Notes under the pieces: generated by a model
Database searches by the model: none
What the model was told of the DNA's origin: nothing
Seen by the model: the letters and a program-made list of their open reading frames with translations, nothing else
Made by a program: the position numbers and the translations under genes
IMG/VR virus record: IMGVR_UViG_3300016665_000824
Span: 64,001-128,000 of that record
Length of the DNA: 64,000 nt
Source: a virus
Strand: one strand, 5' to 3'
Shown: piece after piece, positions 1 through 58,441 of the stretch
How positions within the stretch are numbered: position 1 is the first letter of the stretch
How the letters are laid out: every line of letters begins with the position of its first letter

Positions 1-686
1 TGTTCCCCTTCAAACCAAATCATCGGTTTGATCCTACAAATTTACAGTTTGAAGGATGGTTTACTGGGTGTAATTGGTACGAATTGAGAAAGGGCGAGTA
101 CATCACCGCAGAAGAGGAAGTTCTTGACGGCATTGCCTATCAAGGACAGGAAGTAGCGATCATCACAAAGAATGCTTACGAGGCAGAAGTTTTGAACGCC
201 AAGAATATGATGATTGTTGACGTGGATCTTGAGGGTGATCAGGCGATCGTGCAGAATGCTCAGTTCGCTCTTGACGTACTTCGATCTTTTATTAGCAACA
301 CAAAAAATTGGGATCTAGGCTTTAGGGTTTACAAAACTGCGGCAGGTTTGAGATATATCTGCACGACCCATGAATTTGAAGCGACAGATCCTCTTAGCGA
401 CAAGATTATGCGTAATTTACTCGCTGATGATCGCTACCGAGCTTTGTGTAAATTCCAAGATACCTATCGCGCTCGATTAACTCCAAAACCTTGGCGAGCT
501 TCTGACATTGCGTGGCGTAATCGCGGAGTGTGGGATGTTTCAGGCGAATGGGTGGAATATTTCAGGGTGTGTGACTCGCTTAGCCTCTACGGAAATACTA
601 ATATCCTTCCCCAGTTCGCCAAGGCGATCGAATACCATGATCGAATCACAAATGTCTTTGCCGATCCAAAACTAATCCTCGCGTAG
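1..686 (+). CDS. hypothetical protein, probably 5-prime partial (frame stays open to window start; TTG at 84 is the in-window start)
   Basis: No stop codon in this frame between nt 3 and 84; long ORF; no recognisable motif. Confidence 0.45.
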   Translation, partial: FPFKPNHRFDPTNLQFEGWFTGCNWYELRKGEYITAEEEVLDGIAYQGQEVAIITKNAYEAEVLNAKNMMIVDVDLEGDQAIVQNAQFALDVLRSFISNTKNWDLGFRVYKTAAGLRYICTTHEFEATDPLSDKIMRNLLADDRYRALCKFQDTYRARLTPKPWRASDIAWRNRGVWDVSGEWVEYFRVCDSLSLYGNTNILPQFAKAIEYHDRITNVFADPKLILA

Positions 687-1109: not shown

Positions 1110-1812
1110 TGACTTTCGCCTTGATTTGCTTCTTGACTTGAGTTCTCAGGTCTGGGGATAGTCGCTTCAGTCCCTGATTCAATATTTGCTGAGTTGTCTT
1201 CGCGTCTGTACCGCGACGAAAGTTGACACCCATGATCGTGTCGGGATCTGGTGGGTTTTCCAAGATTTCAATACCATTTCGCTCGCAGTAAGCGCGAGAC
1301 ACAGCGATCGCAGTACACTTGCAATTCCAATCACATGGAAATCCTATTCGCCTCCAGAAAGGAGAGGCTGCGGGAATCCCTTTATTGTGTAAAGCCTTAT
1401 GTGCTGGACGAGGCACTACCGAGTCGCGATGTCTCCATACCCATATATCGAGTTTCGCCATCACTTCAGGACTCCGCATCACCTTCTCCCTACCCTGCCA
1501 ATAAGACTTGTTGATATTCGTATCAAAAATCAACTTAATCTTCTGACCATTCGGCTGATATCCTGCGCGACCGATACGACGGTTAAAGCTACGAGTAAAT
1601 TGCTCGAAGGACGTGCCATCTTCAAGGGCTTTACCGATTAACCACTTAGTTGCTTCAAGTAAATCTGCTCGCATTAATCCAGATACCATAAAAGCGTGGT
1701 CGTGGATACGGGCATCTAAACCTTTGTAGTCGGATATAGGTAGAGCTAACCGATCGCGTAAGGCTGCGATCGCATCAACAGGTTTTAACTTCAAATACTC
1801 AGGGGTTGCCAC
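1102..1812 (-). CDS. phage head morphogenesis protein, Mu F / SPP1 gp7 family
   Basis: 236 aa; C-terminal PCDWNCKC resembles the conserved HPNCRC-type motif of the Mu F family; stop/start overlaps neighbours. Confidence 0.6.
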   Translation of the reverse strand: MATPEYLKLKPVDAIAALRDRLALPISDYKGLDARIHDHAFMVSGLMRADLLEATKWLIGKALEDGTSFEQFTRSFNRRIGRAGYQPNGQKIKLIFDTNINKSYWQGREKVMRSPEVMAKLDIWVWRHRDSVVPRPAHKALHNKGIPAASPFWRRIGFPCDWNCKCTAIAVSRAYCERNGIEILENPPDPDTIMGVNFRRGTDAKTTQQILNQGLKRLSPDLRTQVKKQIKAKVNG

Positions 1813-4394
1813 TAGCTCACCCTCCGAAACTTGTCGCGGGTTTCCCAGTAGGCTGCGAGGTAGACTTCCGATGTGGCGATCGCGTCGTTATTGAGTTGAC
1901 TGTCAATGAAGTCGCGTCCCTCCTTCTGCTTTTTCTGGATTTGCTCTTGTTGATAGGCGATCGCTTTTTGTAGTTTTGAGATCTGCTTCTCAGGGGTTAG
2001 TGTTCCAAATCCAGTTATATCTATCCCCATATTGGTTAGTGCTGTTTGAGATGCAGCTAGCGGCTTCTTCCCTGACTGAATTCGAGCAAGGGTCGCCTCT
2101 AAGGTCTTAGTGGTTGCCTCCATCTTGCTGATGTTGTTTTGAAGCGTTTTCAAGTCTATAGGCGGAGTAGCAGTCTTTGATTCAGTACTTGCAGCAGTAT
2201 CCACTGATTTATTTTTACGCGATCGTTTTTGGGTTGCGGTAGTACTGGTTGCAGTACTTACTGATTTACTGCTAGGCGATCGCGTAGAACTTTTTGAAAG
2301 GGGTGGCGCGGCGGAAGACTTAGCTCCGTAGTTTTCGGGATATCGGGCTTTGTTTTCTTGCACCAGTGATTCGTAGTAATCGGCGAATCCGTCTGCCGCT
2401 TCTTTTGCCTGTTCAAGGGAAAAGAAGCGGGTTTTATCTCTGTTCCTACCGCTAAACATATCGGCTAAATCTTCAGGTTCGTGCTCTTCGGTATAAACCA
2501 TCCACCCATCATCTTCTTTTTGGATGGAAATAAAGAGTGATGCGTCTTTGTCTGAAGCCTTTTTTCTTGCGTTGGAGCTGTATCTGTCAGCAGAGTCTGG
2601 ATCTTTAACCCACTCTCCAGCAATAACCTTGTCCAGCTTTTTATTGTATGTTTCTCGTGCTTTCTGTCTTCTCTCTGCGGCTTTCTGTTTTTTGGCAAAC
2701 TCTGCCAGTGTTTTTTCGGCGCTAGATACTAAACTGTTGGACTGACTTGAAGTCAAGTTGTCGGGTTTGCTGCTAGGCGATCGCTCTTGAGGGGTTTCGG
2801 GTTCTGCTTTAGGTGGTTTCGGAGCAACATACTTTTTACCAATCATCGCCTCATGCAGCAGCATTAATTCCTTGGCTTCAGAAGTATCAACACCTAGTGT
2901 CTCGATATCCCTAGCAATGACGGAGGCAAGCTTAGACTTTTGTTCTGGGGTAGCCTTGTCCGCAAACACCTCCTGATCCGACTGAGGAAACTTCTTGGTG
3001 TTTCTCAGCTCGTAAGCCGCATTTATGTTTGCTATCCCATCAACAGCCTTGGAAATCCTAACAGCTTCTTCCTGTGCTATTTCTTTCTTGCTTTTAGGTT
3101 TGACTGGAACATTCGCCTCCTGAGCGATCGCCGCTACTGGCTGGATAACTTCTTCAGTTTTTGGTTTTACCGCCCTGCTGCGACTCTTCTTAGGCTCGCC
3201 CTCTACGGGGTTTTTGGTTGATCTTTCTGTGTTAGGAGTCTCGTCTACCTGAGTTTTTGGAGGCTTAGCCGCTTTCTCTGTCGATCGAGACTTCGCCCGT
3301 GGGTTCTTGATGTTCTCGGCGATCGCCTCTTGAATCTTGTCTTGATTACGAGTAAACCGCATCTCGCCTACACGAATAACTCCTTTCCCATCCCTAAGAT
3401 CGATAGAGTATTGATTTGCACTCTCGGCAAGAGGAGTTCCTTTTTTCTTGTCAATGGCTCCACGAAACTGGATAGAGTCCTCAAGTCCATGTTCTTTAAG
3501 CTTGTCGTATAGTCGCTGCAAATCGACAGACTGTTTTTCGCGAGCAACCTTGTTTACAATACCGTTTCCTGCGCGAGCCTTTACGTCGTCGATACGGACA
3601 TATCCCTCATCATCAGCTAACTCAAGGTTCTGCTTCTTCCTCTCGATCTCTTCTGGGAGGAGTTGCTTACGTTTCAGTTCCGCAGCTAGAGCTAGTTCAT
3701 ACCCCCTCTTTTGGGCGGGGTAATTAACCGAAACTAGCTCCTTCAGGGCTTGAATCTTGGGTTGCTCAGCTTCGTATGCGGACTGGGCTTCTGGAGTTCT
3801 AACCTCTTGAGTCTTCTGCGGTTTTGTTACAGGAGTAGACTCAACCTGTTCAACTATGGGTTCAACCTCTTTAATATCTGTGTTTGCGGGTGGAGTTGAC
3901 TTGTTTGCGATCGCCGCACCAACACCCAATCCAACAGTCGCAGCCGCACCAACACCTACCGCAACATTTCTTGAAGTATTAGAGGGCGGAAGAGTTGGTC
4001 TCTGCCTAACGGGTTCCTGATAAGGTTCACTAGAACGCCCTGCGTTCACCACTGCGCCAGTCAAGGCTAGTCCGCCAACAGCTAATCCCGCACCGATCGC
4101 CGCTTTACTAAGAAAGCCCATCTCAGATTTTGGTGGTTCCTGCGATCGCGCCAATGCTCGCTCTAATTTTGATGGTGGTAGTACATTTACGCCCTGTCCT
4201 TGTGGAGCTTTCCGATAATAAAAACCACCCCTAACACGTCTATCCTGAACGCAAACATAACCTGCCCGTGGAGCGCAAGCATCGTAGCGCAACTTAACTT
4301 CTAGAGCCGCATCAATATACTCTTGAGGCATTACATCAAGAGTAATTTCGTCTAGATACAGACCAGCAAGGTAGTTCTTATCGAGATCTGGCAT
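1812..4394 (-). CDS. large (860 aa) membrane-anchored, low-complexity/coiled-coil protein of unknown function
   Basis: Two Gly/Ala-rich hydrophobic segments near N-terminus, long Lys/Glu/Ser/Thr-rich region; immediately upstream of Mu F-like gene. Confidence 0.55.
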   Translation of the reverse strand: MPDLDKNYLAGLYLDEITLDVMPQEYIDAALEVKLRYDACAPRAGYVCVQDRRVRGGFYYRKAPQGQGVNVLPPSKLERALARSQEPPKSEMGFLSKAAIGAGLAVGGLALTGAVVNAGRSSEPYQEPVRQRPTLPPSNTSRNVAVGVGAAATVGLGVGAAIANKSTPPANTDIKEVEPIVEQVESTPVTKPQKTQEVRTPEAQSAYEAEQPKIQALKELVSVNYPAQKRGYELALAAELKRKQLLPEEIERKKQNLELADDEGYVRIDDVKARAGNGIVNKVAREKQSVDLQRLYDKLKEHGLEDSIQFRGAIDKKKGTPLAESANQYSIDLRDGKGVIRVGEMRFTRNQDKIQEAIAENIKNPRAKSRSTEKAAKPPKTQVDETPNTERSTKNPVEGEPKKSRSRAVKPKTEEVIQPVAAIAQEANVPVKPKSKKEIAQEEAVRISKAVDGIANINAAYELRNTKKFPQSDQEVFADKATPEQKSKLASVIARDIETLGVDTSEAKELMLLHEAMIGKKYVAPKPPKAEPETPQERSPSSKPDNLTSSQSNSLVSSAEKTLAEFAKKQKAAERRQKARETYNKKLDKVIAGEWVKDPDSADRYSSNARKKASDKDASLFISIQKEDDGWMVYTEEHEPEDLADMFSGRNRDKTRFFSLEQAKEAADGFADYYESLVQENKARYPENYGAKSSAAPPLSKSSTRSPSSKSVSTATSTTATQKRSRKNKSVDTAASTESKTATPPIDLKTLQNNISKMEATTKTLEATLARIQSGKKPLAASQTALTNMGIDITGFGTLTPEKQISKLQKAIAYQQEQIQKKQKEGRDFIDSQLNNDAIATSEVYLAAYWETRDKFRRVS

Positions 4395-4953
4395 AATGTC
4401 TTTTCACTTCTAGATAGGCGGCTTGGTACTCAAGGGGTTTGGTTGAGTCAACTCGTTTAGATTTTGCGAGTGGTTTCTTATAGTTCGGAGCCTTGTCTTG
4501 ACCACCACAAGCGCATTGAGCTTTAGTCAACCCTTTCTTCTTGCAGTCCGAACATCCGCATTTATCGTTCATACCCATAGAATCCACCTTGTATTTATTA
4601 CTGCCGTTAGCAGGAAGGCTCTTTGACCACAAATCTTTCCTTGCCCAATGATTGGGACTAAACACGTCGTTTGCTGTGGACTGCCCTGATTTGTTTTTAA
4701 TCCCCGCCGATCGCGCTAAGTAGCTCTTCTTCGCCTCGGCGCTGTAGTTGTTCTGATATCCAGTTGCGCCATAGTGGACAACCTTGATGCGATCGCCTTT
4801 TTTCACGAGTACAGCCCGTTTCTTGCCTGGTCGCCATGACTTGATGGGTTTGTTAAAAGCGGGAAAGGTATGCCCAGCATAGTTAATACCGCCACCTTCC
4901 TTCTTGAGGCAGCGCTTGCCTGCCGAGATATATCCTTTGCCGCATTGAGCCAT
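4378..4953 (-). CDS. basic Cys-rich hypothetical protein
   Basis: 191 aa ORF, Lys-rich with CGCSDC and CACGG cysteine clusters; 17-nt overlap with downstream gene. Confidence 0.4.
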   Translation of the reverse strand: MAQCGKGYISAGKRCLKKEGGGINYAGHTFPAFNKPIKSWRPGKKRAVLVKKGDRIKVVHYGATGYQNNYSAEAKKSYLARSAGIKNKSGQSTANDVFSPNHWARKDLWSKSLPANGSNKYKVDSMGMNDKCGCSDCKKKGLTKAQCACGGQDKAPNYKKPLAKSKRVDSTKPLEYQAAYLEVKRHYARSR

Positions 4954-5039
4954 GATTTAGATCTGAATACGTTGTCCGATAATAAGCGATCGCCAATTCA
5001 GCTTCATTTAAAATCTCCGAAGGCGCGATCGCTAAGATT

Positions 5040-11208: not shown

Positions 11209-11257
11209 ATTCAGTGGCGATCGCGTATGTCCATCTGACAGGCGATCGCCACTGAAT
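11209..11257. promoter_or_regulatory. perfect 16-bp inverted repeat (ATTCAGTGGCGATCGC / GCGATCGCCACTGAAT, 17-nt spacer) abutting the start codon of the 551-aa gene
   Basis: Read directly: arms 11209-11224 and 11242-11257; start codon at 11206-11208 on minus strand. Confidence 0.55.
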
Positions 11258-11279
11258 CAGGAGTATTTGCTAAAAAAGC

Positions 11280-11309
11280 AAAACAGGACTGCGTTGGCAA
11301 TCCTGTTTT
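11280..11309 (-). terminator. rho-independent terminator-like hairpin for minus-strand transcripts
   Basis: 9-bp stem AAAACAGGA/TCCTGTTTT with 12-nt loop; on the minus strand followed by GCTTTTTTA. Confidence 0.5.
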
Positions 11310-11310
11310 A

Positions 11311-11328
11311 GGTGATTCAGATCGGAAT
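11311..11328. repeat. 18-mer GGTGATTCAGATCGGAAT (copy 1), abutting stop codon of minus-strand gene 11329..12120
   Basis: Exact copy at 21272-21289; one-mismatch copy at 49106-49123. Confidence 0.6.
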
Positions 11329-12120
11329 CTATTCTGGGATGTCTATATCCCCAAGCGCTCTTATCTTCTCTCTAAACTCTATAAATGTCCTTACCACGCC
11401 TATGTAGTCACTAAATCGAGTCTTAAGCTCAGAGACTTCTTTCTGGCTTAGCTGTAGAGACTCAATATAGTTTTGTTCTCGATCCTTGAGGTTCGCGTTC
11501 TCTTCCTTAAGATCCGCAATCTGTCTGCGTAGATCGGCGATCGCTATTAGGATCTGATCAATCTCCTCCTTTGTTATTGCGCTTGGAGGATCTTCAAACT
11601 CCCCATTCTGTAGGGCGATCGCGCCAATCTTCCGAATAGCTTCGCGGTACTGAAGTCTTTCTTTCTGGAGGTCGTAGGCACTTTTCTCGATCTTTGTATA
11701 CTCTGCGTCAGTCACGTATGGAGGGGACTCCACTTCGACACACAGAAAGTTCGTGCCAATTCTTGCTAATCTATACCCAATCTCGGACTTAGCTCGACGG
11801 ATATGATTTATCTGGGATTCCAGCTTTGTATAGAACTCGTCGGTCTCAACGTCGGACGGAGAAAAACCTTCGTCTAGCAAGAGCCTGCCAAGATAATCAA
11901 TCTTTTTAGCGAATAGCTTCTTGGTTTCTACTGCTCGTTCGTAGTCTTCTAGCTGCTCAACATAGGTCTGTGCAAGCGTCTGAATACTCTCGTACTGCGA
12001 TCGCGGAACGAACCACTTGGAAAGGATGTCGTTAATTAGATTCAAATCAATCCTCCAGCTCATCTGCGTCTGGGGGTGCGGGAGTGCTAACCACAGTAAG
12101 CCAATTAGCTTTTTGCTCAA
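11329..12120 (-). CDS. coiled-coil protein (scaffold-like by composition and position)
   Basis: 263 aa, Glu/Lys/Leu/Gln-rich heptad-like stretches; immediately upstream of the major virion gene. Confidence 0.4.
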   Translation of the reverse strand: MSKKLIGLLWLALPHPQTQMSWRIDLNLINDILSKWFVPRSQYESIQTLAQTYVEQLEDYERAVETKKLFAKKIDYLGRLLLDEGFSPSDVETDEFYTKLESQINHIRRAKSEIGYRLARIGTNFLCVEVESPPYVTDAEYTKIEKSAYDLQKERLQYREAIRKIGAIALQNGEFEDPPSAITKEEIDQILIAIADLRRQIADLKEENANLKDREQNYIESLQLSQKEVSELKTRFSDYIGVVRTFIEFREKIRALGDIDIPE

Positions 12121-12736
12121 CTAAAGCCGCTTGATAGTCCTGCTCCTCAAGAGTGGAGAGATCGGGGCGCAACTCGGCTAGTTTTTCGTCAGGAATGGCA
12201 ATCAATTTTTCGGCAGTTTTGACTGCGGCGATTTCTTCGGGAGTTACTTGCTGCCCAGTGAGATCTTCTAGGGTTGGCGCTTCAGGAGTTTTTTCGCCGA
12301 AGCCTTTTTTCTTGCGAGATTTCTTTTCTGGTTGAGGCTCCTCCACTGCGGCTTCCGTATTTTGAGGTAACACCGCATTGATAAATTCAATCAGTTCAGT
12401 TGCACCCAAACTTGCTGGCAAGGTGGGGATTAGCTTTCTGAGATTATTCTCCAATGCTACGCGGGGATTCTTGGCGGGGTCTGGCTCGATTTCAGGGTCT
12501 AGGTTTAGAGAGAACAAGAAAGCCGAGTCGCGATCGCTAGATTGTGTTTCCACCATTAGATCCTGAAAGGCTTTTACGGGATCTTTGGTTGTTAGCGCCG
12601 ACTCATAGGCTTTGGCGGACGAAATTTTTAAAAGCGACCAAATAATCTTGGTGGCAGGATCGATCGCGGCATCGCCAGAAACGAAGGGGTACTCAACGCC
12701 GCGCACGGTGATAGTGTTACTCAACGAATTCTCCAT
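12047..12736 (-). CDS. acidic hypothetical protein
   Basis: 229 aa ORF, Glu/Asp/Pro-rich C-terminus. Confidence 0.4.
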   Translation of the reverse strand: MENSLSNTITVRGVEYPFVSGDAAIDPATKIIWSLLKISSAKAYESALTTKDPVKAFQDLMVETQSSDRDSAFLFSLNLDPEIEPDPAKNPRVALENNLRKLIPTLPASLGATELIEFINAVLPQNTEAAVEEPQPEKKSRKKKGFGEKTPEAPTLEDLTGQQVTPEEIAAVKTAEKLIAIPDEKLAELRPDLSTLEEQDYQAALVEQKANWLTVVSTPAPPDADELED

Positions 12737-20703: not shown

Positions 20704-20710
20704 AAATATA

Positions 20711-20745
20711 AAAAGACGATCCGACGTGAGATCGGATCGTCTTTT
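20711..20745. terminator. bidirectional intrinsic terminator between convergent genes
   Basis: 14-bp perfect stem AAAAGACGATCCGA/TCGGATCGTCTTTT, 7-nt loop; A-run on one side and T-run on the other. Confidence 0.6.
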
Positions 20746-20874: not shown

Positions 20875-22632
20875 CTAGCTAGCGATCGCCATTAATTTAG
20901 TCAACCCAGCCTTCCGCAACATCTCTTGCTGGAGCTTGGTTTGAAAATATGGCTTATCCTCAGCACTTGCTACTCGATACAGTTCCAGCCAGTATTTCTC
21001 CCGCTTCTCGCAGTGTATATGCTGAATCTTGGCGATCGCACGGTCAACCACTGCCTTGACATCGCCAGCGATCGCCTCTTGCATTGCGTAAGGTATGTCC
21101 GAAAAGTCATCGTTCAGGAATTTATCCCACAGCGCACAGTGATCGTCATGGGCAAATTCGATCTCTTGAAGCAGGATATACCCCCGCAAATCGGGATGAT
21201 GGACAAAGGCTTTTAGTATCTGCATTTCGGCTAGTTGCAGAGCAGTATAACTGGGTTTTGCGGCAACCTGTGGTGATTCAGATCGGAATACCGATCGCGC
21301 AAGTCGATGTAAATCCTCCTCAATGCGTACGGCAAGGCGAGCATTTCCCTGAGCTAACTTCTGAGCACACTTATGGGTATAGTGGCTACGTCGGGCATCC
21401 ATCGGCAATGGGGCGAGTATTTGCGCGATCGCTTGATTAGCTCGCTGGAAGTCGGCAGAATTGTTAAGGTCTTTGCCCTTAATCTCAAGGTCAATTAACC
21501 AGTCAAGGTATAGCGGCGCTTCGCGGAGCAGCGATAAGTACGCTTCAGAACCATAAGTGGTTAGGTACTCGTCGGCATCTTTTTTGCCCTCAATGGTTAG
21601 TATCCGTAGATTTACCGTACCATCCAGAACTAGCTCTAGGACTTGACTTACGGCTTTTTTAGTTGCCGTAACACCTGCTTTGTCCGAGTCGAAGTTGCAA
21701 ACTATACGCTTCGACTCAGTATGGCGTAAAACCTGTTTAATTTGAGCGGCGCTAAGCGCTGTGCCCATTGAGCCGACTGCATGGGTAATTCCATTTTGGT
21801 GCAGGGAAATCACGTCGAGGTGTCCTTCGACAATTACCGCCTCGTCGTTCTTGGCGATCGCCTCACAAGCTTTGTCTAGTCCAAACAGTAGTTCACCCTT
21901 TTTGAACAACTCGGTTTCGGGCGAGTTGATATACTTTGCGCCGTCGTCCTCACCGCTTAGCGATCGCGCAGAAAATCCAACCACGCGACCACGGATATCG
22001 GCGATCGGGATAATCAGGCGATCGCGAAATCGGTCATAGTAGCCTTCGTTTTCTTTGCGAGGTATCGCCAACCCCAATTCTTCAAGAGTTTGAACGGGGA
22101 TATTTAACTCGGCAAGGTTACTCCACCCCGCAGGCGCGTAACCGAGCTTGAACTTATTGCAGGTATCTCTGGTGATTTTGCGTTTTTCTAAGTAGGCAAG
22201 GGCTTTGGTGTTGAGCTGTTGCTGGTAGTAACGAGTGACTTTAGCTATTTGATCGAAGAGGTATTCCCTGTGCGATCGCTCCTTAACGATTTGCTCGGCA
22301 TGTTCTGGCTCTTCGGTTCTTACTTCAACCCCGTAACGACCAGCCAAATCTAGTACGGCATCTGGGAACGATTTATGACCAATCTCCATCATAAACTTGA
22401 TCGCACCACCCGACGCACCGCAGTTATGGCAGTAATACATGCCTTTGCTGGGGTCTACCGAGAGGGCGCTGGGATTCGTGCCGTTGTGAAATGGGCAAGC
22501 GCCACGAAATGAGTGACCCGACCGCTTAAGTACGACGTTTTCGCTAACGACATCAACGATGTCGGCTTTGTCGTTTACTGCGGCGATCGTATCAGCATGG
22601 ATTCGGAATGATTTAGGTTTGGCGGATTGCAT
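20875..22632 (-). CDS. DNA primase, DnaG-like (CHC2 zinc finger + Toprim)
   Basis: CPFHNGTNPSALSVDPSKGMYYCHNCGASG zinc-binding motif; Toprim-like EGHLDVISL and NFDSDKAG. Confidence 0.75.
   Translation of the reverse strand: MQSAKPKSFRIHADTIAAVNDKADIVDVVSENVVLKRSGHSFRGACPFHNGTNPSALSVDPSKGMYYCHNCGASGGAIKFMMEIGHKSFPDAVLDLAGRYGVEVRTEEPEHAEQIVKERSHREYLFDQIAKVTRYYQQQLNTKALAYLEKRKITRDTCNKFKLGYAPAGWSNLAELNIPVQTLEELGLAIPRKENEGYYDRFRDRLIIPIADIRGRVVGFSARSLSGEDDGAKYINSPETELFKKGELLFGLDKACEAIAKNDEAVIVEGHLDVISLHQNGITHAVGSMGTALSAAQIKQVLRHTESKRIVCNFDSDKAGVTATKKAVSQVLELVLDGTVNLRILTIEGKKDADEYLTTYGSEAYLSLLREAPLYLDWLIDLEIKGKDLNNSADFQRANQAIAQILAPLPMDARRSHYTHKCAQKLAQGNARLAVRIEEDLHRLARSVFRSESPQVAAKPSYTALQLAEMQILKAFVHHPDLRGYILLQEIEFAHDDHCALWDKFLNDDFSDIPYAMQEAIAGDVKAVVDRAIAKIQHIHCEKREKYWLELYRVASAEDKPYFQTKLQQEMLRKAGLTKLMAIAS
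21272..21289. repeat. 18-mer GGTGATTCAGATCGGAAT (copy 2), inside primase coding sequence
   Basis: Encodes VFRSESP in the primase frame. Confidence 0.6.
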
Positions 22633-31089: not shown

Positions 31090-31823
31090 TTGAAAGGCAA
31101 GTTAAACTGCTGGTTCTAGACAAAGACGGTACACTCGTTCGCCCCAAATCTGGCAATACCTTCGTCCAGCACCCCGAAGATCAGGAGCTAATCGAAGGAG
31201 TGGCTGAAGCTATTCAGAGGTATGTTGCTGATGGATGGCAGTTGGCGATCGCGTCAAATCAGGGTGGATGCGAAGTGCGATGGTGTCACCCCGCCGAATT
31301 ACCTGTAGGTAGTTACTGCAATGTAGATAACATTGCCATCAAGGTTGAATACCTTCAAGACACTGGTGAGTTTATACTCGTAAATGGGCATCACCCACTA
31401 CCAAAAACTAGGTTTGCGAAGTTCCAATACAAGACTCTCGGCATAGCGATCGCAGAGATGCAGTATGCGATGAAGCTGATCGGCATTCAGTATCATGGTC
31501 TATTCTGTCCAGACATGCAAGGGAATGAATGCTACATGACTTCGGACTTTGCTGCTCCGCCATTACACAAGGTTGATAGATACAAACACTTAATAGGCTC
31601 GTTCCGTAAGCCCAGTGGTGGAATGTTGCTAGCATTAAAGCAGCACTTTGAAACACATCTTGATGATGTTGATCGGCTGCTCATGATCGGCGATCGTCCC
31701 GAAGATTTGGGATCGGCTCAAGCCGCAGGATTCGATTTTGTGTGGGCAGAAGACTGGCGAAATAACGAACTAGACAAAGTTCTGCCCTACAGGAGCGAAG
31801 AATGGATCGCTCTGAACTCCTAA
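31086..31823 (+). CDS. HAD-superfamily phosphatase
   Basis: N-terminal VLDKDGTL (DxDGT motif I) and C-terminal MIGDRPEDLGSAQAAG (motif IV-like). Confidence 0.5.
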   Translation: MIERQVKLLVLDKDGTLVRPKSGNTFVQHPEDQELIEGVAEAIQRYVADGWQLAIASNQGGCEVRWCHPAELPVGSYCNVDNIAIKVEYLQDTGEFILVNGHHPLPKTRFAKFQYKTLGIAIAEMQYAMKLIGIQYHGLFCPDMQGNECYMTSDFAAPPLHKVDRYKHLIGSFRKPSGGMLLALKQHFETHLDDVDRLLMIGDRPEDLGSAQAAGFDFVWAEDWRNNELDKVLPYRSEEWIALNS

Positions 31824-32101
31824 CTCGCATCCAAGTCCAGCGAATGTGGCTAGAGGACATCCGTGGCAAGTCTCTAGCTCCTCAGTTGGAGATTTGGAAG
31901 AACAAATACCTTGCCGCAAATAATCTCACGCATCTGGATGCTCAGGGGCTGGAGCAACTGCTTAAGGCTCTTGAGTCTATGACTAAGGCTACGGTGAGTA
32001 ACGCCGAGGAATTGGATAGTCAGATGCGCGAGAGGATTAAGAGTGGCGACTACTCGATTCGATTTGTTGAAAAGATTGTTGAAGATGATGAATATTTTTA
32101 G
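31802..32101 (+). CDS. hypothetical protein
   Basis: 99 aa; 3-prime end encoded by junction repeat R1. Confidence 0.4.
   Translation: MDRSELLTRIQVQRMWLEDIRGKSLAPQLEIWKNKYLAANNLTHLDAQGLEQLLKALESMTKATVSNAEELDSQMRERIKSGDYSIRFVEKIVEDDEYF
32074..32100 (+). repeat. junction repeat R1 (GATTGTTGAAGATGATGAATATTTTTA), copy a
   Basis: Identical 27-mer at 32619-32645; both followed by a purine-rich RBS-like GGAGG/AGAGG. Confidence 0.75.
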
Positions 32102-32340: not shown

Positions 32341-32384
32341 GATCGCCACTTTTTCAGATCTGAATTACCACAAAAGCACAATGA
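32341..32384 (+). repeat. junction repeat R2 (...AGATCTGAATTACCACAAAAGCACAATGA), copy a
   Basis: 29-bp identical core at 32356-32384 and 33097-33125, flanked by near-identical GATCGNCNCTTTTT. Confidence 0.75.
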
Positions 32385-32614
32385 TTTTAGAGGCCTATTA
32401 TGAAACGTGGGTATCTCGCCCCATTCAAAAGAGAGCTAAAGGTCGAGCCACCTATAGTAAGCCGCAGTGGGAGCATACCTCAGACACAGAAGAAGAGGCG
32501 ATCGCTCACAACAAGATGCTTTCGGCTTACTACCCCGACTGGAAGATTGAAATCAGGGCTGTCGAACAAAAACGAGAATACTGGGATGTCAAGACTGCGG
32601 CAGTTCGAGATTAA
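32381..32614 (+). CDS. hypothetical small protein
   Basis: 77 aa; ATG supplied by junction repeat R2; alternative frame 32400..32627 also open. Confidence 0.35.
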   Translation: MILEAYYETWVSRPIQKRAKGRATYSKPQWEHTSDTEEEAIAHNKMLSAYYPDWKIEIRAVEQKREYWDVKTAAVRD

Positions 32615-32655: not shown

Positions 32656-33147
32656 ATGGCAAGTGTCAAGCATTATTTAAGTTGCCCAGCTAAGCCCTAC
32701 GAAGAAGGGATACCCTTATACTCCGATCGCCTGAGAGAATGGTTTCACGATATCGGTGATGTCTGGGAATACTACGAAGATCAGATCGGAGAAGATGAGG
32801 ATATTGATCTTGAATGGGCGGAAGCCAAGCAATCGCCTCAAGGTATTTGTGAAATGGCTCGTCTTTTCTTAGGTAGACCAGTTTATTTGCCGTGGGCTGA
32901 GATTCCTGAATTTGATCTACCTGATGGTGTTGACGATATCTCGGAAATACTGCCGCCAAGCCACGAGATCAACATAAAACTTGCCGAGTTAAACAAGCTT
33001 ATCGAAGAAACAAAGCTGGTTGTTTGCTACGAGGAGTCTAGCTACCGCCCAGATCCAGAAACCTTGGACTTTAAGTGCGCGATCGTCGCTTTTTTTAGAT
33101 CTGAATTACCACAAAAGCACAATGAAAGCTCGACAGTTCGAGATTAA
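32656..33147 (+). CDS. hypothetical acidic protein
   Basis: 163 aa; C-terminal codons lie in second copy of repeat R2. Confidence 0.4.
   Translation: MASVKHYLSCPAKPYEEGIPLYSDRLREWFHDIGDVWEYYEDQIGEDEDIDLEWAEAKQSPQGICEMARLFLGRPVYLPWAEIPEFDLPDGVDDISEILPPSHEINIKLAELNKLIEETKLVVCYEESSYRPDPETLDFKCAIVAFFRSELPQKHNESSTVRD
33081..33125 (+). repeat. junction repeat R2, copy b
   Basis: See copy a; supplies C-terminal codons of gene 32656..33147 and the ATG of gene 33122..33376. Confidence 0.75.
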
Positions 33148-33376
33148 ATTTAGAAACCATCCAGAGTGCGATCGCCTAGTCGAAGCCACCAGTCATGCCA
33201 AAGCCAAGATGAAGCTCGCCTACGAGTTGGTTGAGGCGGGAGTATTTAATACTTTTGGAGAGGCTTTACTGGCGATCGCCACCTGCCGAGTCTTACAGCC
33301 AATGAAGCGAGGGAAACCCGAAGGGTGGTATCGGGTGAACCCTAAACGAAAAACAACAAGGAACAAAAAGCAGTGA
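33122..33376 (+). CDS. hypothetical small basic protein
   Basis: Internal ATG at 33122 (supplied by R2 copy) inside track ORF 33020..33376. Confidence 0.35.
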   Translation: MKARQFEIKFRNHPECDRLVEATSHAKAKMKLAYELVEAGVFNTFGEALLAIATCRVLQPMKRGKPEGWYRVNPKRKTTRNKKQ

Positions 33377-34401: not shown

Positions 34402-34627
34402 CCCAGCAGGACATTATCCTAGACAAGATGCGTCGGAAGCAATCGGAATTTGAAGACTACTACGTTTTTAGCACTCACGACATAGTGACCCTATGTGAGG
34501 ACAGTCATCTGGACTGGGACTTGGCTTTTGACCAGCTAATAGCTTTAAACAAGAGGAATCTAGTTGCTATAAATCCGACATATTGCGATCGCACAGGCAA
34601 ATTTATCGGATTGTTGTGGGGTTTAAA

Positions 34628-35572
34628 ATGAGTAAAACCGTAGCCACGATGTATTCTGGCTTTGGCGGAGTTGATCAGGGTTTCGTTTTGGCAGGGTATA
34701 CGCCAGTCTTTGCGATCGATAACAATCCTGATGCAGTAGCGGTTTATATCGAGAATTTTGGCAACCACTGTCTAGAGAAGGACGTTTGTGAGTTTGATTA
34801 TTCAAGAGTTAAAGCAGATCACCTCCATGCTTCTCCAAGCTGCAAAGAGTTTAGTAGCGCCAATCACCGTAGTAGCGAAACCGATCTCGATATTCGATGC
34901 GCCCAAGCTACGGTTAAGGCGATCGCACAGATAAACCCTCAAACATTTTCCCTCGAAAATGTAAAGCAGTACGCTAAGTCTAAGTCTTTTGATTTGATTA
35001 GGCGATCGCTACGAGAAATGGGCTACGCCTGCAACGTAACCGTAGTCAACGCGAAGGATTTCGGTGTATCCCAATCACGAGAAAGGCTAATTCTTCGAGC
35101 ATGGGTTAAATCCCGCAAACGCCCTAGACCTTTGGCGTTGTACAAACAGTGTTTAACAATGGGGTGGCATGACGCGATCGCCGATTTAATCCCCACTCTC
35201 AAACCACAACCATTGAATAATTGGCAGCTAGCCTCTCTTGAGGAGCAGGGTATAGACCCCACCAACCTAACTGCACTGGTTAGCAAAGATGGGTCTCGCA
35301 AGAAAAAAGGCTTTAAAAATACTTTTGCCTTGGTAATCCCCTCGTCCAAGCCTTGCCCAACCCTCAAGGCAATGGGGCATAATCAGCACTGTCAGCAGTA
35401 TTCGATTGTGGTTAACGGTGTTGGTTATCGGATTTCTACCGAGGCGATCGCGAGACTAATGAGCTTTCCCGACTCATTCAAATTCTCAGGAGTGAATTAT
35501 AAAGACTGTATGGGTTTAGGTAATGCAGTACCGCCATTATTGGTAAGAGCGATCGCGGAAAGTTTTGCTTAA
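34628..35572 (+). CDS. DNA (cytosine-5)-methyltransferase
   Basis: Motif I-like MYSGFGG, catalytic PSCKEFSSAN (Pro-Cys), ENV motif; start at internal ATG 34628. Confidence 0.65.
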   Translation: MSKTVATMYSGFGGVDQGFVLAGYTPVFAIDNNPDAVAVYIENFGNHCLEKDVCEFDYSRVKADHLHASPSCKEFSSANHRSSETDLDIRCAQATVKAIAQINPQTFSLENVKQYAKSKSFDLIRRSLREMGYACNVTVVNAKDFGVSQSRERLILRAWVKSRKRPRPLALYKQCLTMGWHDAIADLIPTLKPQPLNNWQLASLEEQGIDPTNLTALVSKDGSRKKKGFKNTFALVIPSSKPCPTLKAMGHNQHCQQYSIVVNGVGYRISTEAIARLMSFPDSFKFSGVNYKDCMGLGNAVPPLLVRAIAESFA

Positions 35573-45160: not shown

Positions 45161-45386
45161 AGAAGATGCTGAAGAATGCTTAGCTAAAAATCTAAAGGTT
45201 GTAACGCGCTATGGGCTAGGCGAAATTATTTCGATCGCCAAGAAAAGCGACCCAGTACAATGGGCAGAGATAAAACAACTTGACCGCGATCGCCAGTTTG
45301 AAGTACCCAGATGTCTATACCTATCGAGCATCAGCAGATATACTGCTGTTTTGGTTGAGCAAAGTGAAGTAGAAAGTATTTTTTAA
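45153..45386 (+). CDS. hypothetical small protein (start at ATG 45153 after GGAGGG)
   Basis: Internal ATG of track ORF 44979..45386 with RBS. Confidence 0.35.
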   Translation: MTREDAEECLAKNLKVVTRYGLGEIISIAKKSDPVQWAEIKQLDRDRQFEVPRCLYLSSISRYTAVLVEQSEVESIF

Positions 45387-47011
45387 TATCCCGATCGCCA
45401 CACGATATCCATCAGAGTTTCCCTACCAGCGAAAGCAATAACACAAGCGTCACTACAATTAGGCGATCGCCCCAATCTACGAATAGTTTTAGAAGCCTTA
45501 TCCTCAATGCGTAACTTCGCGTTGGGGGTTTCTTCGTAGTAGACGTTACTAAAGTCCGTCATCAGATATTCTTCCTCCTCTAGTGGTGCGATCGCCGATA
45601 TATCGTCATTGCCATCGGCAGCAGCAAAGAATTCACGCAGTTTCCAATACCATTGAGCCTTCCAGTTCATATATAGCTGATCGAAGTCTTGGTTGGCATC
45701 TTCTTCTACCGCATCACCAAAGTTAGCTGCCCATACTTGCGCTCCCCATCCGCGATCGAGCAAGTAAGCTAATGTACCCGAACCAACACCCGTGGCATCT
45801 ATACCCACTTTACAGTTAGGATAGACGCGCAGATATTCTTCCTCAATGATTTGGGCAATACGAATAACGTCTTTGCGATCGCCTACACAGGGGATAACCC
45901 TCGCGATCTTAAGCACATTACCTTGAAACCCACAAATAGCATGGTCATCACTCATGGAGCCGACATCTACACCAAAACTCCAAGGTGTATTGACATTGAT
46001 AATTGTTTCCCACAGATCGGGATTGAGATCGTATCTTGCCCGTGCCGCAACAAAGTAGCTCTTGGGAAGTATAGACGCGCCACCCGATTCCGAGAACAAG
46101 CCCTCAATACGAGTCAGCCAGAAAGGTGAGTTTTCACCCTTCTTGATACGCATCCTTTCAATCCATGCGATCGAGATAGCACCCTTGATTACATCTCTGG
46201 GTAAGTCAGCATCCCATTCGGATTGAGGTTTGATTGGCTCGTCGCGAGAGTTGGGGTCATTAGGCGATCGCTTAATCTTTGCCTCGACCTCTGGTTTAAG
46301 TCGGTGCATCCCATCAAGATGCAGGTCGTAAGCCCATTCAACATTTGGGTGCTGCCATGCACTGCATCTGATATGGCTGAGGTTGCAAGCAGTATAGAAA
46401 GGGGAGTCACATCTGGTTGGGTTGCCAATACGAAGAATCTTATTTTGTTCCCCTGTAAGACAGCTTTCTAGGGAGGTATCTACGGCAGGACTGATACCAC
46501 AGGCTTCATCTTCAATAATAAGCATTCGTTCTGAGTGGATACCCTGCGCTGCCGAATCATTATGGTCACTACTGGAAAAGCCGTATGCCTCAACCCCTTC
46601 TTCGAGGAATACCCGCAGCTCATTTCTCTTGCCGCCGAGCTTCTTCTTGTGTTTGTCGTATAGACGACGGACAACGCCCCAAAGCAACTTAGTAACCTGT
46701 CGGTGAGTTGGTGCGGTAGAGATAACAAGCGATCGCACAGCAAATACCGCCCAGAGGACTAACCACCCACTCAAGTATGTCTTGCCTAAACCGTGGCAGG
46801 CGGCAACATTGGTAACACGCTTGTTCTTGACCGATTCAAGAATGGTGATCTGTTGTCCCGTGATAACAATATCGGGTTCAAGGTATCGAATAAATCCTTC
46901 GGGGTCGTCGGCAAATCGGGTTAAGTCTTCACCGATCGCCACATCCCCCTCATTACCTGATACCAGCTTAATCTGCGTATTACAGCTCGTCTTCAGTCTC
47001 GCAAAGCCCAC
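45383..47011 (-). CDS. terL: terminase large subunit
   Basis: Walker A-like ACHGLGKT, Walker B-like LIIEDEA; 542 aa. Confidence 0.75.
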   Translation of the reverse strand: MGFARLKTSCNTQIKLVSGNEGDVAIGEDLTRFADDPEGFIRYLEPDIVITGQQITILESVKNKRVTNVAACHGLGKTYLSGWLVLWAVFAVRSLVISTAPTHRQVTKLLWGVVRRLYDKHKKKLGGKRNELRVFLEEGVEAYGFSSSDHNDSAAQGIHSERMLIIEDEACGISPAVDTSLESCLTGEQNKILRIGNPTRCDSPFYTACNLSHIRCSAWQHPNVEWAYDLHLDGMHRLKPEVEAKIKRSPNDPNSRDEPIKPQSEWDADLPRDVIKGAISIAWIERMRIKKGENSPFWLTRIEGLFSESGGASILPKSYFVAARARYDLNPDLWETIINVNTPWSFGVDVGSMSDDHAICGFQGNVLKIARVIPCVGDRKDVIRIAQIIEEEYLRVYPNCKVGIDATGVGSGTLAYLLDRGWGAQVWAANFGDAVEEDANQDFDQLYMNWKAQWYWKLREFFAAADGNDDISAIAPLEEEEYLMTDFSNVYYEETPNAKLRIEDKASKTIRRLGRSPNCSDACVIAFAGRETLMDIVWRSGY

Positions 47012-48580: not shown

Positions 48581-49105
48581 GCAGAGAGTGGATTTTGCCT
48601 TTTTAGGAGCGCCAAGTAATTAGTTTTGGAAGAACAATTACTAACAAACTTTTATGCGATCGCACAACATGGCTTTTTCCTGATTCCTACATAGGCTTTT
48701 ACCCTGTAATGCCATGAATTTATAGGTTCAGCGATCGCATGGTAGACAGATTACTCTGTCCGCACTTTCTCTGGACAAGAAAGTAGTGGGATAATCAACC
48801 GCCAGCACCATATCTGGCATTCGTCACCACGAGGGCTTAAGGTGTGTGTTGCCACAGTTGATTGTTTGCTAGCGTACTGGAAAGGCGATCACTATTGCCT
48901 CATGACCACCTAAAACTCGCTCATATATTAAGGTTAGGCTTCGAGCAAGGCTTAATCTCAGGTCTAGCACCCCCTGTTCGACACCTTACTGCCGCAGGGA
49001 CGGTGCGATCGCCTACCAACTAGGGAAATTTATTCAATAACCACACGGAGAGACCCCGACGTTCATTGATAGTGCGATCGCAACATAATTCTAACACAGT
49101 CTTGT

Positions 49106-49123
49106 GGTGGTTCAGATCGGAAT
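49106..49123. repeat. 18-mer GGTGGTTCAGATCGGAAT (copy 3), overlapping stop codon of minus-strand gene 49123..49605
   Basis: One mismatch relative to copies 1 and 2. Confidence 0.55.
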
Positions 49124-49605
49124 TAGTTGGCTGCTCGACCACCACATCTAGTACCATCTGCGGCAGTCTGCCATGAGTATTGACAGTTTCCAGAGTATCC
49201 AGAAGTGTTTGAGGGTGGATTGTCTAGCAAATAAACAGGCTTTTGCTGACAAGTTAAAGAAGCACTATCAAAGGTTGAATCCGTCGGGCAGGGGGCAGTA
49301 CAAAGAGTCCCATCCCCACGTCTGTCGATAGTTCCTTTTGGGCAAGCACTACCAACCAGAAACCCTTGACTTGGAGAAGTTTTTTGTGATGAGGTTGGGA
49401 TGCTTCTTGATTCGCTAGTCGTATTGATAGAAGTCCCATTGTTGCCCGTACATAGATGGTCCAGATTTACCAGAACCCCTCGGCTGTTGACCATATAACA
49501 CAAGGGCAAGTTGCTGGGTAGCCCCTCAAAAGGATCTTTAGCGATCGCTAGTTGAGGCAAGGCAAAAATAGTAACAAGAGACAACAAGACACCGATCTTT
49601 TTCAA
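49123..49605 (-). CDS. secreted Cys-rich protein
   Basis: N-terminal signal-peptide-like MKKIGVLLSLVTIFALPQLAIA; 10 Cys in the mature part. Confidence 0.5.
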   Translation of the reverse strand: MKKIGVLLSLVTIFALPQLAIAKDPFEGLPSNLPLCYMVNSRGVLVNLDHLCTGNNGTSINTTSESRSIPTSSQKTSPSQGFLVGSACPKGTIDRRGDGTLCTAPCPTDSTFDSASLTCQQKPVYLLDNPPSNTSGYSGNCQYSWQTAADGTRCGGRAAN

Positions 49606-56754: not shown

Positions 56755-57016
56755 CTTCGTATGTACTCTCTAAAAAATCTGAACATTTTTGGTAATTAGA
56801 CAGGGCAGCTTTTTTTGTAAAACCTCTTGCTTTGAGGCTGGTCTCTTTTCCGATTGCGGCTATCTGTCTTGCAGTTTTAAGACCGCAAGGAGATTTGATT
56901 CTTACTCCTCTCTTCTTTAAAAGGCGGTATCCCCAATCCTTAAAAGTCCCAAAAGGTATGCCAATCTGCTCTGCCCACTCGTGAAGGTGGCGTTCTACTT
57001 GGCTTGTTTGCGTCAT
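56741..57016 (-). CDS. hypothetical protein
   Basis: 91 aa ORF. Confidence 0.35.
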   Translation of the reverse strand: MTQTSQVERHLHEWAEQIGIPFGTFKDWGYRLLKKRGVRIKSPCGLKTARQIAAIGKETSLKARGFTKKAALSNYQKCSDFLESTYEDVQR

Positions 57017-57204
57017 AGGTCTTCAAAGTTTTCTGGAACAAGGTCGAACGAATCAAAGTTTGCGAGCTGAGATTCTACCTGTTCTAGTTCCAAGCTAAGA
57101 TTCTGGGCATCTTCTCCTTGACTCTGTAACTCAGAGATAGACCTCTTAAGTTGATACTTTCTATTAAATAATGATCTAATCAACTCGTCTTGGGCGTTTT
57201 GCAT
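57013..57204 (-). CDS. hypothetical small coiled-coil protein
   Basis: 63 aa ORF, first gene of minus-strand operon. Confidence 0.3.
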   Translation of the reverse strand: MQNAQDELIRSLFNRKYQLKRSISELQSQGEDAQNLSLELEQVESQLANFDSFDLVPENFEDL

Positions 57205-58005: not shown

Positions 58006-58212
58006 ATGCTTAAGTACAAACAAGCTGAAGTGGCGATCGCTCCCAACGGTTCGTGCGAAATTCTTTGGGGAAATAACCACCCCACAATGGCTGGAATGAA
58101 GCAAGATGTACATCTGCCTGAAGAGATCAAGGGCCACCTTGTTGCAGTAAATCAGTACGTCAGTCAGTACATTGATATCGTGACGGAGCCAGCAGATGTC
58201 TTGGACTTATAG
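58006..58212 (+). CDS. hypothetical small protein
   Basis: 68 aa ORF. Confidence 0.3.
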   Translation: MLKYKQAEVAIAPNGSCEILWGNNHPTMAGMKQDVHLPEEIKGHLVAVNQYVSQYIDIVTEPADVLDL

Positions 58213-58441
58213 AGTCTGCCGTGATTTTGAACCTAATGGGGAAGAGTTCCTCAGTATTCGCGAATGCTGGGTTAGAGAGGGCGCTTCCCCTCCCTATAAA
58301 GACGAGGACTATACTTCTTGGTCTGCCGAGCCTATTTCTGTGGTCGGAGATAATCTTGAAGAGCTGGCATGGAAGCTAGAGAAGATGGCGATCGCTCTGA
58401 AGAAAAACATTCTTGATATACCACGCGATCGCCCTGAGTAA
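58196..58441 (+). CDS. hypothetical small protein
   Basis: 81 aa ORF. Confidence 0.3.
   Translation: MSWTYRVCRDFEPNGEEFLSIRECWVREGASPPYKDEDYTSWSAEPISVVGDNLEELAWKLEKMAIALKKNILDIPRDRPE

Follow-up and report, generated by a model that had tools for sequence, protein, structure and literature searches.

What does a short sequence do that recurs three times in one piece of viral DNA, twice flush with the stop codon of a gene? In the window analysed here, a stretch of 64,000 nucleotides (positions 64,001 to 128,000 of the IMG/VR record IMGVR_UViG_3300016665_000824), the 18-mer GGTGATTCAGATCGGAAT occurs exactly at 11311-11328 and 21272-21289 and with one mismatch (A to G) at 49106-49123; a search of the window bore out these positions and the mismatch count, both of which had been put forward from the letters alone. 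The recurrence had also been held to be unlikely by chance, and this is upheld: when up to three mismatches are allowed, the window holds 4 matches against 0.08 expected by chance, and 0 of 100 shuffles reached 4. The three copies (c1 to c3) all lie on the minus strand, as do the genes there, and the transcribed-strand form of the 18-mer is ATTCCGATCTGAATCACC(ACA); c2 and c3 match further, over 21 nt, as TGTGGTG[A/G]TTCAGATCGGAAT (family D19). The placement of the first and third copies at stop codons is correct as well, since TAG (11329-11331), which ends the minus-strand gene 11329..12120, directly abuts c1, and TAA (49123-49125), which ends the minus-strand gene 49123..49605, has one base in common with c3. 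The second copy is, as proposed, read in frame as VFRSESP (residues 447-453) within a primase: gene 20875..22632 encodes DnaG, with PDB matches over residues 19-426 (E = 4.5e-53), and because these matches stop at residue 426, c2 is placed in the linker between the catalytic core and the C-terminal domain. The 18-mer is the best-conserved form of a short palindromic gene-border element found in one group of cyanobacterial viruses from fresh water, all of them uncultured.

The window belongs to a 134,398-nt ENA contig (ERZ27292652:k141_20893) and is HIP1-rich (185 occurrences of GCGATCGC), with 45.6% G+C. It encodes structural functions (portal, large terminase, minor head and neck proteins) and replication functions (DnaB, a replication initiator, a sliding clamp and SSB), together with thymidylate synthase, dCTP deaminase, two DNA methyltransferases and HNH endonucleases; the contig flanks add a major capsid gene, a Rha-type regulator, a ParA-like ATPase with its RHH partner and a second ParB_N-like protein. 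Deposited phage genomes contain nothing near-identical to the 9.5-13.5 kb region and nothing that meaningfully matches the c1 module, and the nearest portal relatives (S-CBS4 and CL131) are only 30% identical; a metagenome scan with the portal alignment gave one extra locus only. The phages are not T4-like. The relatives used for comparison are IMG/VR and metagenome contigs (L001-L011, L032/33/101 and L045/67/75/82). These freshwater cyanophages are known from metagenomes only, and to our knowledge the regulation of gene expression in freshwater siphovirus-like cyanophages is essentially uncharted.

A pattern search combined with a position weight matrix (built from 15 distinct copies, with the maximum over 20 shuffles as background) adds three window members to c1-c3, at 32352(+), 33093(+) and 4955(-) (Table 1). 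The six members score 28.8-36.1 bits; the next best sequence reaches 16.9 and the shuffle maximum 16.7. None of the three added members figured in the earlier description of the 18-mer. Two of them, the Y elements c4 and c5, share the general form T(T/C)AGATCTGAATTACCACAAAAGCACA-ATG, and the upstream ORF 32656..33147 reads through c5. The family numbers 6 copies in the window and 8 in 83 kb of the same 134-kb contig, and it occupies 10 non-orthologous loci across related HIP1-rich cyanophage contigs. All ten are co-oriented with the flanking genes and transcription (two-sided p = 0.002), and 4 of the 6 window copies are fully non-coding, compared with 9.9% non-coding sequence in the window (p = 0.0012). 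By context, one locus heads an operon, five sit 1-27 nt before start codons (14-27 nt for c4, c5, c7 and c8), two precede intrinsic terminators and two are intragenic. The element is real, conserved and lineage-specific. A weight-matrix scan of the window found no reverse-oriented copy above background, and an antisense partner or trans-acting RNA is accordingly rejected. Also set aside was ATTCTGATCGGAC, which follows a consensus promoter at 57.3 kb; it is motif-like but unconserved in L008, and so is not counted as a family member.

Table 1. Copies of the border element and features discussed with them; positions are those of the window.
Feature	Position	Strand	Sequence and context
c1	11311..11328	-	ATTCCGATCTGAATCACC; palindrome 11315-11328; flush with TAG; portal ATG (11208) 106 nt downstream
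c2	21272..21289	-	exact 18-mer in DnaG primase gene 20875..22632
c3	49106..49123	-	ATTCCGATCTGAACCACC; one-base overlap with TAA of gene 49123..49605
c4 (Y element)	32352..32380	+	TTTCAGATCTGAATTACCACAAAAGCACA; ends at ATG of orphan gene 32381..32614
c5 (Y element)	33093..33121	+	TTTTAGATCTGAATTACCACAAAAGCACA; ends at ATG of gene 33122..33376
c6	4955..4968	-	ATTCAGATCTAAAT; 1 nt (C) before ATG (4953) of minor-head-protein gene 4378..4953
c7	same contig, outside window		exact 18-mer in CTAATTCCGATCTGAATCACCAC; 14 nt before ATG of 657-aa ParB_N-like protein
c8	related contig		27 nt before a tail-cluster gene
c9	relative L067		after last gene of tail operon, convergent genes facing
c10	same contig, outside window		CTAATTCCGATCTGAA-CACAAACAA; N-terminal tail region of RHH gene
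Intrinsic-terminator-like hairpin and T-run	11269..11310	-	directly after c1; 14-pair stem, CTTTTTTAGC tail
Second hairpin, 16-bp stem	11209..11257	-	abuts portal start codon; c1 context, outside the repeat family
Extended -10-like box TGTGTTAGAAT	49088..49098	-	7 nt after c3; kept in L007-L009; consensus match only
ParB/KorB/Noc-like candidate binder, 219 aa	49672..50331	-	ParB_N by Pfam and PHROG; one gene upstream of c3

A repeat of this kind could have a trivial origin, as a remnant of Illumina adapters (AGATCGGAA / TTCCGATCT), a product of chimeric assembly joins or a HIP1-like host repeat. The 9-mer AGATCGGAA is indeed the start of an Illumina adapter, literature matches to the sequence are to sequencing primers only, and several copies coincide with homology breakpoints. 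However, the window contains no adapter k-mer of 11 nt or more and lacks AGATCGGAAG, the variant copies TTCAGATCTGAA, TTCGGATCGGAA and TTCTGATCTGAA are not adapter-like, orthologous copies are present in independent assemblies from different samples, and the primase copy is in frame; with the 9-mer alone in common, adapter carry-over and chimeric assembly are both rejected. A common host repeat had been named in the original prediction as the finding that would speak against it, and it did not materialise: across 185,579 species genomes (bacteria and archaea, one each), the sequence turned up 18 times, always as a single copy in an unrelated genome and never in a cyanobacterium, where by a rough estimate ~35 matches would arise by chance, so that a HIP1-like repeat is rejected as well, the singletons being at chance level only. 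We consider an artefact or a chance origin extremely improbable.

At the core of the element stands an interrupted palindrome of 14 bp, ATTCnGATCnGAAT, that is, ATTC-n-GATC-n-GAAT; the whole element measures ~27 nt, the palindrome being followed by a one-sided, less conserved A/C-rich tail (YACC-ACAA). Five orthologous pairs were compared, each setting the window lineage against the remotest available relative: of 50 comparisons at the ten TTC/GATC/GAA positions, one showed a change, compared with 5 of 10 at the two n positions (Fisher p = 2.6e-4). Between the window and L007, the n positions of c3 changed from C to G and from T to G with the half-sites kept, the site reading GTTCGGATCGGAATC throughout L007-L009; at c7 they changed from C to A and from T to G between relatives, again with the half-sites kept. 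The c6 orthologues read ATTCAGATCTGAAT (L003, L004, L011) and ATTCCGATCTGAAT (L005), and the c5 orthologue, a copy at 5710 of L010 (TTCAGATCCGAATTAACACAAAATCACC-ATG), stands before a homologue with 52% identity. The n-n combinations observed (C/T, A/T, A/G, G/G, A/C and T/T) show no covariation as in an RNA stem, and a possible RNA self-hairpin of the motif has only 4 pairs; since the n positions are unpaired and the hairpin so short, the symmetry points to double-stranded DNA read by a dimer. We interpret this position-specific constraint as the probable signature of a site bound by a dimeric DNA-binding protein, for which the genome offers a candidate.

The flush stop codons follow from the element rather than from its surroundings. 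The copies c3, c7 and c10 all read CTAATTCC, and the CTA that they share on the upstream side makes a TAA that runs into the motif; at c1 the triplet is TAG. The TAA of c10 is not in the reading frame and ends no gene. The shared CTAATTCC and this non-terminating TAA together indicate that the flush stop is built into the element and is not a property of the neighbouring genes. One and the same TAG at c1 closes three different upstream sequences, the stop at c3 closes two unrelated genes, and the element holds a TGA in a second frame. The two intragenic copies, c2 and c10, fall in probable linker or tail regions and are read in different frames, as VFRSESP and NSDLN respectively; the constraint therefore lies on the nucleotides and not on the peptide, and, most copies being non-coding, a peptide-level explanation (FRSESP) is rejected. 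In the primase gene, c2 is found at the 3' border of a stretch of synonymously conserved codons: where the window and the L005 lineage encode the same residue, the codon is identical in 14 of 15 cases, compared with 50.6% gene-wide, and the codon conservation collapses just after c2. Judged from reading frames and codons, selection on c2 and c10 probably acts at the nucleotide level.

The gene-end placements had been taken to suggest a 3'-end, termination-associated or recombination site. An association with gene ends does hold, but not as a general rule, as c4, c5, c6, c7 and c8 precede start codons. The termination-associated part likewise stands for two loci: strong intrinsic-terminator hairpins begin 3-5 nt after c1 and c9 (5 nt at c1), and these two share one layout at different places, namely stop, motif, A-rich spacer, hairpin and T-run. 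It does not extend to the others, as c2 and c4-c8 have no downstream hairpin with a T-run and c3 has none that is convincing, a weak, unconserved 5-bp candidate lying ~50 nt on. The c1 leader (141 nt) folds at -58 kcal/mol (z = -8.5), and both c1-side hairpins show compensatory stem changes in L005; c1 itself is kept in L002-L006, L005 included, and in L011, with the sequence upstream of the TAG differing in three lineages. Because c9 closes a tail operon and faces convergent genes, it cannot be a 5' element, and because c6 sits in a divergent intergenic region without an upstream co-oriented gene, it cannot be a 3' element.

Promoter-like sequences accompany some of the copies, in a geometry that resembles that of operators. 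At c6, a conserved -10-like box lies 10 nt upstream (TATTAT, or TACTAT in L005; a consensus match only), and c7, also with a conserved box, has the same geometry, with TAAAAT-N10-ATTC in L101 (-10-like, again by consensus match). At c3, which heads a ~650-nt ORF-free stretch followed by a unit that ends in the large terminase gene (45383..47011), the order is reversed: the extended -10-like box comes 7 nt downstream of the copy and, if functional, would put the palindrome centre near -36. No sigma-70-like promoter is found at c1 (searched over 10900-11600), and sigma-70-like boxes are absent at c1, c2 and c9. With -10-like boxes only near c3, c6 and c7 and no consistent -35/-10 geometry, a sigma-70 promoter at every copy is rejected.

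These placements also bear on the alternative that the element works at the RNA level in cis, with AUUCCGAUCUGAAUCACC(ACAA) recognised in the mRNA, where it would either be cut by an endoribonuclease to separate cistrons or act on translation of the following gene as an operator or enhancer. Such a role would suit the sense orientation of 10/10 loci, the five copies at 1-27 nt before start codons and the one-sided A/C-rich tail, which resembles an unstructured leader; c1 and c9 stand directly ahead of 3' hairpins, so that a cut there would strip a protective structure, and c2 could be a shut-off cleavage site in the primase mRNA. However, recognition of single-stranded RNA would not explain why the half-sites are conserved symmetrically while the n positions vary freely; the self-hairpin has only 4 bp, and the n-n pairs do not covary. 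Moreover, c3 and c9 have no nearby downstream ORF, and for the genes that the motif precedes, the lack of a Shine-Dalgarno sequence does not reach significance (p = 0.19), since such a sequence is present at just 30% of all genes; the idea of a Shine-Dalgarno replacement falls with it. Searches of the copies against Rfam and for tRNAs returned no known RNA family and no tRNA. We regard recognition in the mRNA as an unlikely basis for the family.

Recombination, the third role suggested, finds support in several copies that lie at homology breakpoints, but it does not unify the family. The homology of all relatives stops exactly at 11331, beside c1, where three different upstream sequences follow; in L007-L009, an unrelated 216-aa gene replaces the gene upstream of c3; and in L005, a ~3-kb insertion starts 16-30 nt from c6. 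At 32-33 kb, L010 has the gene order C-X-[orphan]-Y-F and the window the order C-Y(c4)-[orphan]-X-[orphan]-Y(c5)-F; c4 is thus extra relative to L010, and two inserted orphan genes that L010 lacks are bordered by it. Over 33 nt, c4 and c5 do not differ, and a second repeat, X, alternates with the Y copies. The element might accordingly be a recombination linker or mobile boundary cassette like the PeSLs of T4, maintained and spread chiefly through homologous exchange, insertion and deletion of adjacent genes by way of its near-identical border copies, any regulatory activity (stop codon, terminator, leader) being generic, and the recurrence of one module at c1 and c9, as well as within-genome identity that reaches unconstrained positions, would fit this. 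What it leaves unexplained is the conservation of TTC/GATC/GAA over the n positions between lineages. In the comparison with relatives, no breakpoint is seen at c7 or c2, and the left junction of the c3 gene swap falls at the stop codon of the ParB-like gene, where there is no motif, so that a two-sided cassette at c3 is rejected; with c7 flanked by homologous sequence on both sides between relatives, recombination is not the unifying property. Furthermore, in mosaic phage genomes one would expect breakpoints to fall at gene ends in any case, and no site-specific recombinase is found among the ~110 ORFs scanned. A linker function by itself is therefore, in our assessment, an improbable account, and would make the element an ordinary feature of mosaic phage genomes; recombination is treated here as a real consequence and not as the reason why the palindrome is conserved.

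In T4-type phages, a PeSL (promoter-early stem-loop) is a small mobile cassette, a conserved intergenic stem-loop terminator with a sigma-70 early promoter, flanking orphan genes at indel or replacement junctions (PMC2839356, PMC4122927). Our element is like them in its junctions between relatives at c4/c5, c1 and c3, though not at c7 and c2, and unlike them in having a hairpin at 2/10 loci only, no promoter detected at c1 and a core palindrome unrelated to promoter elements. Copies within the genome are identical at unconstrained positions too (c1, c2 and c7 over 18 nt; c4 and c5 over 33 nt), an identity that fits recent copying as well as selection.

If the palindrome is read by a dimer, the genome may encode the reader. 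Among the ~110 ORFs, neither Pfam nor PHROGs detected a CI/XRE-type repressor, a sigma factor, an RNA polymerase or an integrase; a two-HTH protein is encoded at 61592..62683. The 219-aa ParB_N protein encoded near c3 has 979 relatives in a profile search (E <= 0.001), and its AF2 model reaches a pLDDT of 91.8 with a 57-sequence alignment compared with 52 with a 10-sequence alignment. Foldseek aligns this model over ~210 columns to the ParB-parS complex 6t1f, the KorB-KorA-DNA complex 8qa9 and Noc (7nfu/7ol9), at probability 1.0 with TM-scores of 0.35-0.46 and a large rmsd; this is consistent with a fold match that would span the N-terminal and DNA-binding domains in a different relative orientation, and the C-terminal dimerisation domain appears to be missing. 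ParB-family proteins read palindromes of such size. KorB of RK2 has scattered palindromic OB operators and exerts promoter repression at a distance (PMC11790492). With both properties in mind, the 219-aa protein is a reasonable candidate binder and nothing beyond that; it is the leading candidate. Counting against it are the modest TM-scores and the large rmsd. Another ParB_N-like gene, coding for 657 aa, begins 14 nt downstream of c7.

The same genes raise the alternative of a pure partition or DNA-organisation site, that is, parS-like loading of the phage ParB-like protein(s) for phage-plasmid segregation or compaction, with no role in expression. A 14-bp palindrome in the style of ParB and Noc sites, on a replicon that encodes a ParB/KorB/Noc-like fold, would be in keeping with this, and so would the three copies within one gene of ParB-like or ParA/RHH genes: c3 one gene from the ParB-like gene, c7 before the ParB_N-like gene, and c10 in the ParA/RHH operon. 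In the phage-plasmid N15, the centromere sites lie dispersed over the genome and affect the expression of phage genes. They are four separate inverted repeats (IR1-4) bound by the ParB-family protein SopB (PMC7205306), and our contig is like N15 in its few separate palindromes and partition-type genes, but partition would leave the orientation and the boundary bias unexplained, neither being expected for parS. The ParA of this genome is, moreover, paired with the RHH protein, and a 97-nt tandem repeat unrelated to the motif lies upstream of their operon, so the motif is rejected as the centromere of that system. The association with par genes is also weak (3/8 copies compared with ~0.9 expected, a rough estimate); the other 5/8 lie elsewhere. 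We judge a partition site of this sort to be very unlikely.

The reading that we favour, tentatively, is that of an operator-type protein-binding palindrome carried in a small boundary module, which would act on transcription at gene ends and where late gene blocks are entered, with a secondary use as a substrate of recombination. What it starts from is observed: the family itself, the palindromic constraint on particular positions, the siting at gene borders, the shared orientation and the persistence in relatives; from there, we infer the binding of a protein, the identity of the binder and the effect on transcription. We envision that a dimeric DNA-binding protein docks on the ATTCnGATCnGAAT palindrome where genes meet. 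At c3, c6 and c7, it would repress at or just downstream of promoters; inside transcription units, it would act as a roadblock or termination helper, before the terminators at c1 and c9 and within genes at c2 and c10. The main target would be late-gene expression, because three window copies front the terminase unit, the portal gene and the minor-head-protein gene. Being near-identical, the copies could also double as substrates of homologous recombination and thereby shuffle neighbouring genes.

Several observations sit uneasily with this operator reading. A palindrome alone leaves the co-orientation of the 10 loci unaccounted for, and this strict orientation is the main unexplained fact; either the tail is functional or the whole module is copied in a gene-oriented context. 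Also, c10, inside the RHH gene of a partition operon, is an unexpected target for a silencing site, and no classical repressor, sigma factor or integrase was detected among the ~110 ORFs scanned. A more specific version, which we think distinctly unlikely, is that in this cyanophage of at least 134 kb, possibly a phage-plasmid, a ParB/KorB-type CTPase clamp or another dimeric silencer loads at the ATTCnGATCnGAAT sites at gene borders and silences packaging and head genes as well as read-through. If true, it would amount to a global silencing network of the stoperator or KorB type, one not yet described in cyanophages, with sites that in addition drive the shuffling of genes. Most likely, the motif is a moderately interesting regulatory element and not a new kind of biology. 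It nonetheless stands where the terminase, portal and head-gene blocks are entered, and a concrete protein can be named as its candidate binder, which gives a testable handle on temporal or lysogenic control in this group; it would also be a second, independent example of regulatory boundary cassettes that double as recombination points for the shuffling of orphan genes.

Among known systems, the operator/stoperator system of cluster A mycobacteriophages comes nearest in function and the ParB/KorB/Noc sites come nearest in structure; the motif belongs to neither. The stoperators of the cluster A phage L5 are dispersed at promoters and in short intergenic spaces and oriented with transcription; they are asymmetric 13-mers, present at more than 20 per genome and bound by a monomeric repressor of two domains, an HTH and a stoperator domain (PMC9283540). 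Our motif is like them in being a boundary motif dispersed at promoters and gene ends with 10/10 loci co-oriented, and unlike them in its palindromic core, in its far fewer copies (6 in 64 kb, 8 in 83 kb) and in an unrelated host and phage lineage; because stoperators are asymmetric and monomer-bound, the motif is not a stoperator. A homologue of the L5 gp71-type immunity repressor was not detected by Pfam or PHROGs in the ~110 ORFs scanned.

With the ParB parS, KorB OB and Noc NBS sites, which are palindromes of ~13-16 bp at promoter, distal and intragenic positions, the motif has in common that it is a scattered 14-bp palindrome, and the replicon likewise encodes a ParB_N protein, the model of which aligns with ParB, KorB and Noc. 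In sequence, it is unrelated to the OB operator TTTAGCGGCTAAA and presumably also to parS and the Noc NBS. We know of no gene co-orientation and no placement flush with stop codons for parS, OB or NBS sites. A further parallel is found in cluster K mycobacteriophages, whose SAS and ESAS are short conserved motifs just upstream of starts, with the SAS including the ribosome-binding site. Our motif resembles the SAS in standing ahead of some starts and differs in that it includes no Shine-Dalgarno sequence and also occurs away from starts, at c1, c2, c3 and c9.

In L146, the right-hand flank of the 134,398-nt contig, the genes for a ParA-like ATPase (210 aa) and an 83-aa RHH protein are translationally coupled, and the 1.26-kb gene-free region upstream of the two genes carries a 97-nt tandem repeat in ~2.5 copies. 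Together, the genes and their upstream repeat constitute a type Ib-style partition cassette; its presence on the contig points to a possible phage-plasmid nature of the 134-kb element. L145, the left-hand flank, carries the gene for a 657-aa protein; the 3' end of this gene is window 84..686 (+). This is the second ParB_N-like gene of the genome: the N-terminal region weakly resembles ParB/Spo0J (PDB 1vz0, E = 0.002), the orthologue in the related cyanophage contig L101 matches phrog_3264, and an exact copy of the 18-mer precedes the gene.

The Y elements, the motif-bearing repeats found directly before start codons, alternate around orphan genes with another boundary repeat, the X element. 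The first copy of X forms the 3' end of gene 31802..32101, the second is non-coding, and the related contig L010 has copies at 5207 and ~5476. Repeats also occur within genes. Two unrelated genes, 12047..12736 and the methyltransferase gene 34583..35572, contain the 20-mer in sense orientation, where it encodes SRKKKGF each time, and a third copy of 16 nt (2555-2570, -) is read in a different frame in gene 1812..4394.

Near 57.3 kb, a consensus sigma-70-type promoter (TTGACA-N17-TACACT) is separated from the downstream gene by two exact tandem 21-mers, TGATCGGACAGTCTAATCAGA, 36 nt apart. The related contig L008 keeps the promoter and has three other tandem units, CAACGGACATC, in place of these repeats, a replacement that looks like operator divergence among relatives, comparable with immunity specificities.

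The intergenic abiF RNA match directly follows the plus-strand small genes 58006..58441 and precedes the end of gene 58546..58929 on the minus strand; the inverted 16-mer ACACAAGCAACCCGCC, with arms at 58485/58525, forms the stem of the RNA. The primase gene and plus-strand genes converge on the 22-nt inverted repeat, which probably acts as a terminator in both directions. The arms of the 19-nt inverted pair are 33 kb apart and bear no relation to the abundant interspersed repeat HIP1.

Both arms of the hairpin at the portal gene show compensatory changes in the related contig L005, and the hairpin may control portal translation. Within the ORF-free stretch, partially conserved in L007-L009 (84-86%), the 17-nt sequence AAAACCCATCAGTTAAA occurs as an inverted repeat at 48486/48565. 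The stretch could serve as a packaging site or an origin, or correspond to a non-coding RNA.

Coordinates of the repeats, RNA and regulatory features and partition-type genes
Feature	Position	Strand	Sequence or context
X element	32072-32100; 32617-32645	+	AAGATTGTTGAAGATGATGAATATTTTTA, then Shine-Dalgarno sequence
ParA-like ATPase + RHH protein cassette	L146 13046-13922; 14693-14952		beyond right window end
657-aa ParB_N-like protein gene	L145 12324-14297	-	beyond left window end
Exact 20-mer	12300-12319; 35294-35313	-; +	TCTCGCAAGAAAAAAGGCTT
Promoter-plus-repeat region	57205-57395	-	upstream of gene 57013..57204
Rfam abiF RNA motif match (RF03085)	58495-58531	+	46.9 bits vs gathering score 37
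Perfect 22-nt inverted repeat	20703-20753		AAAATATAAAAAGACGATCCGA / TCGGATCGTCTTTTTATATTTT
Exact 19-nt inverted pair	23388-23406; 56445-56463		AACTCGGAAGACAATCCTT
16-bp-stem hairpin	11209-11257	-	ATTCAGTGGCGATCGC / GCGATCGCCACTGAAT; adjoins portal start codon
ORF-free stretch, ~650 nt	48466-49105	-	between 18-mer copy 3 and genes leading to terminase
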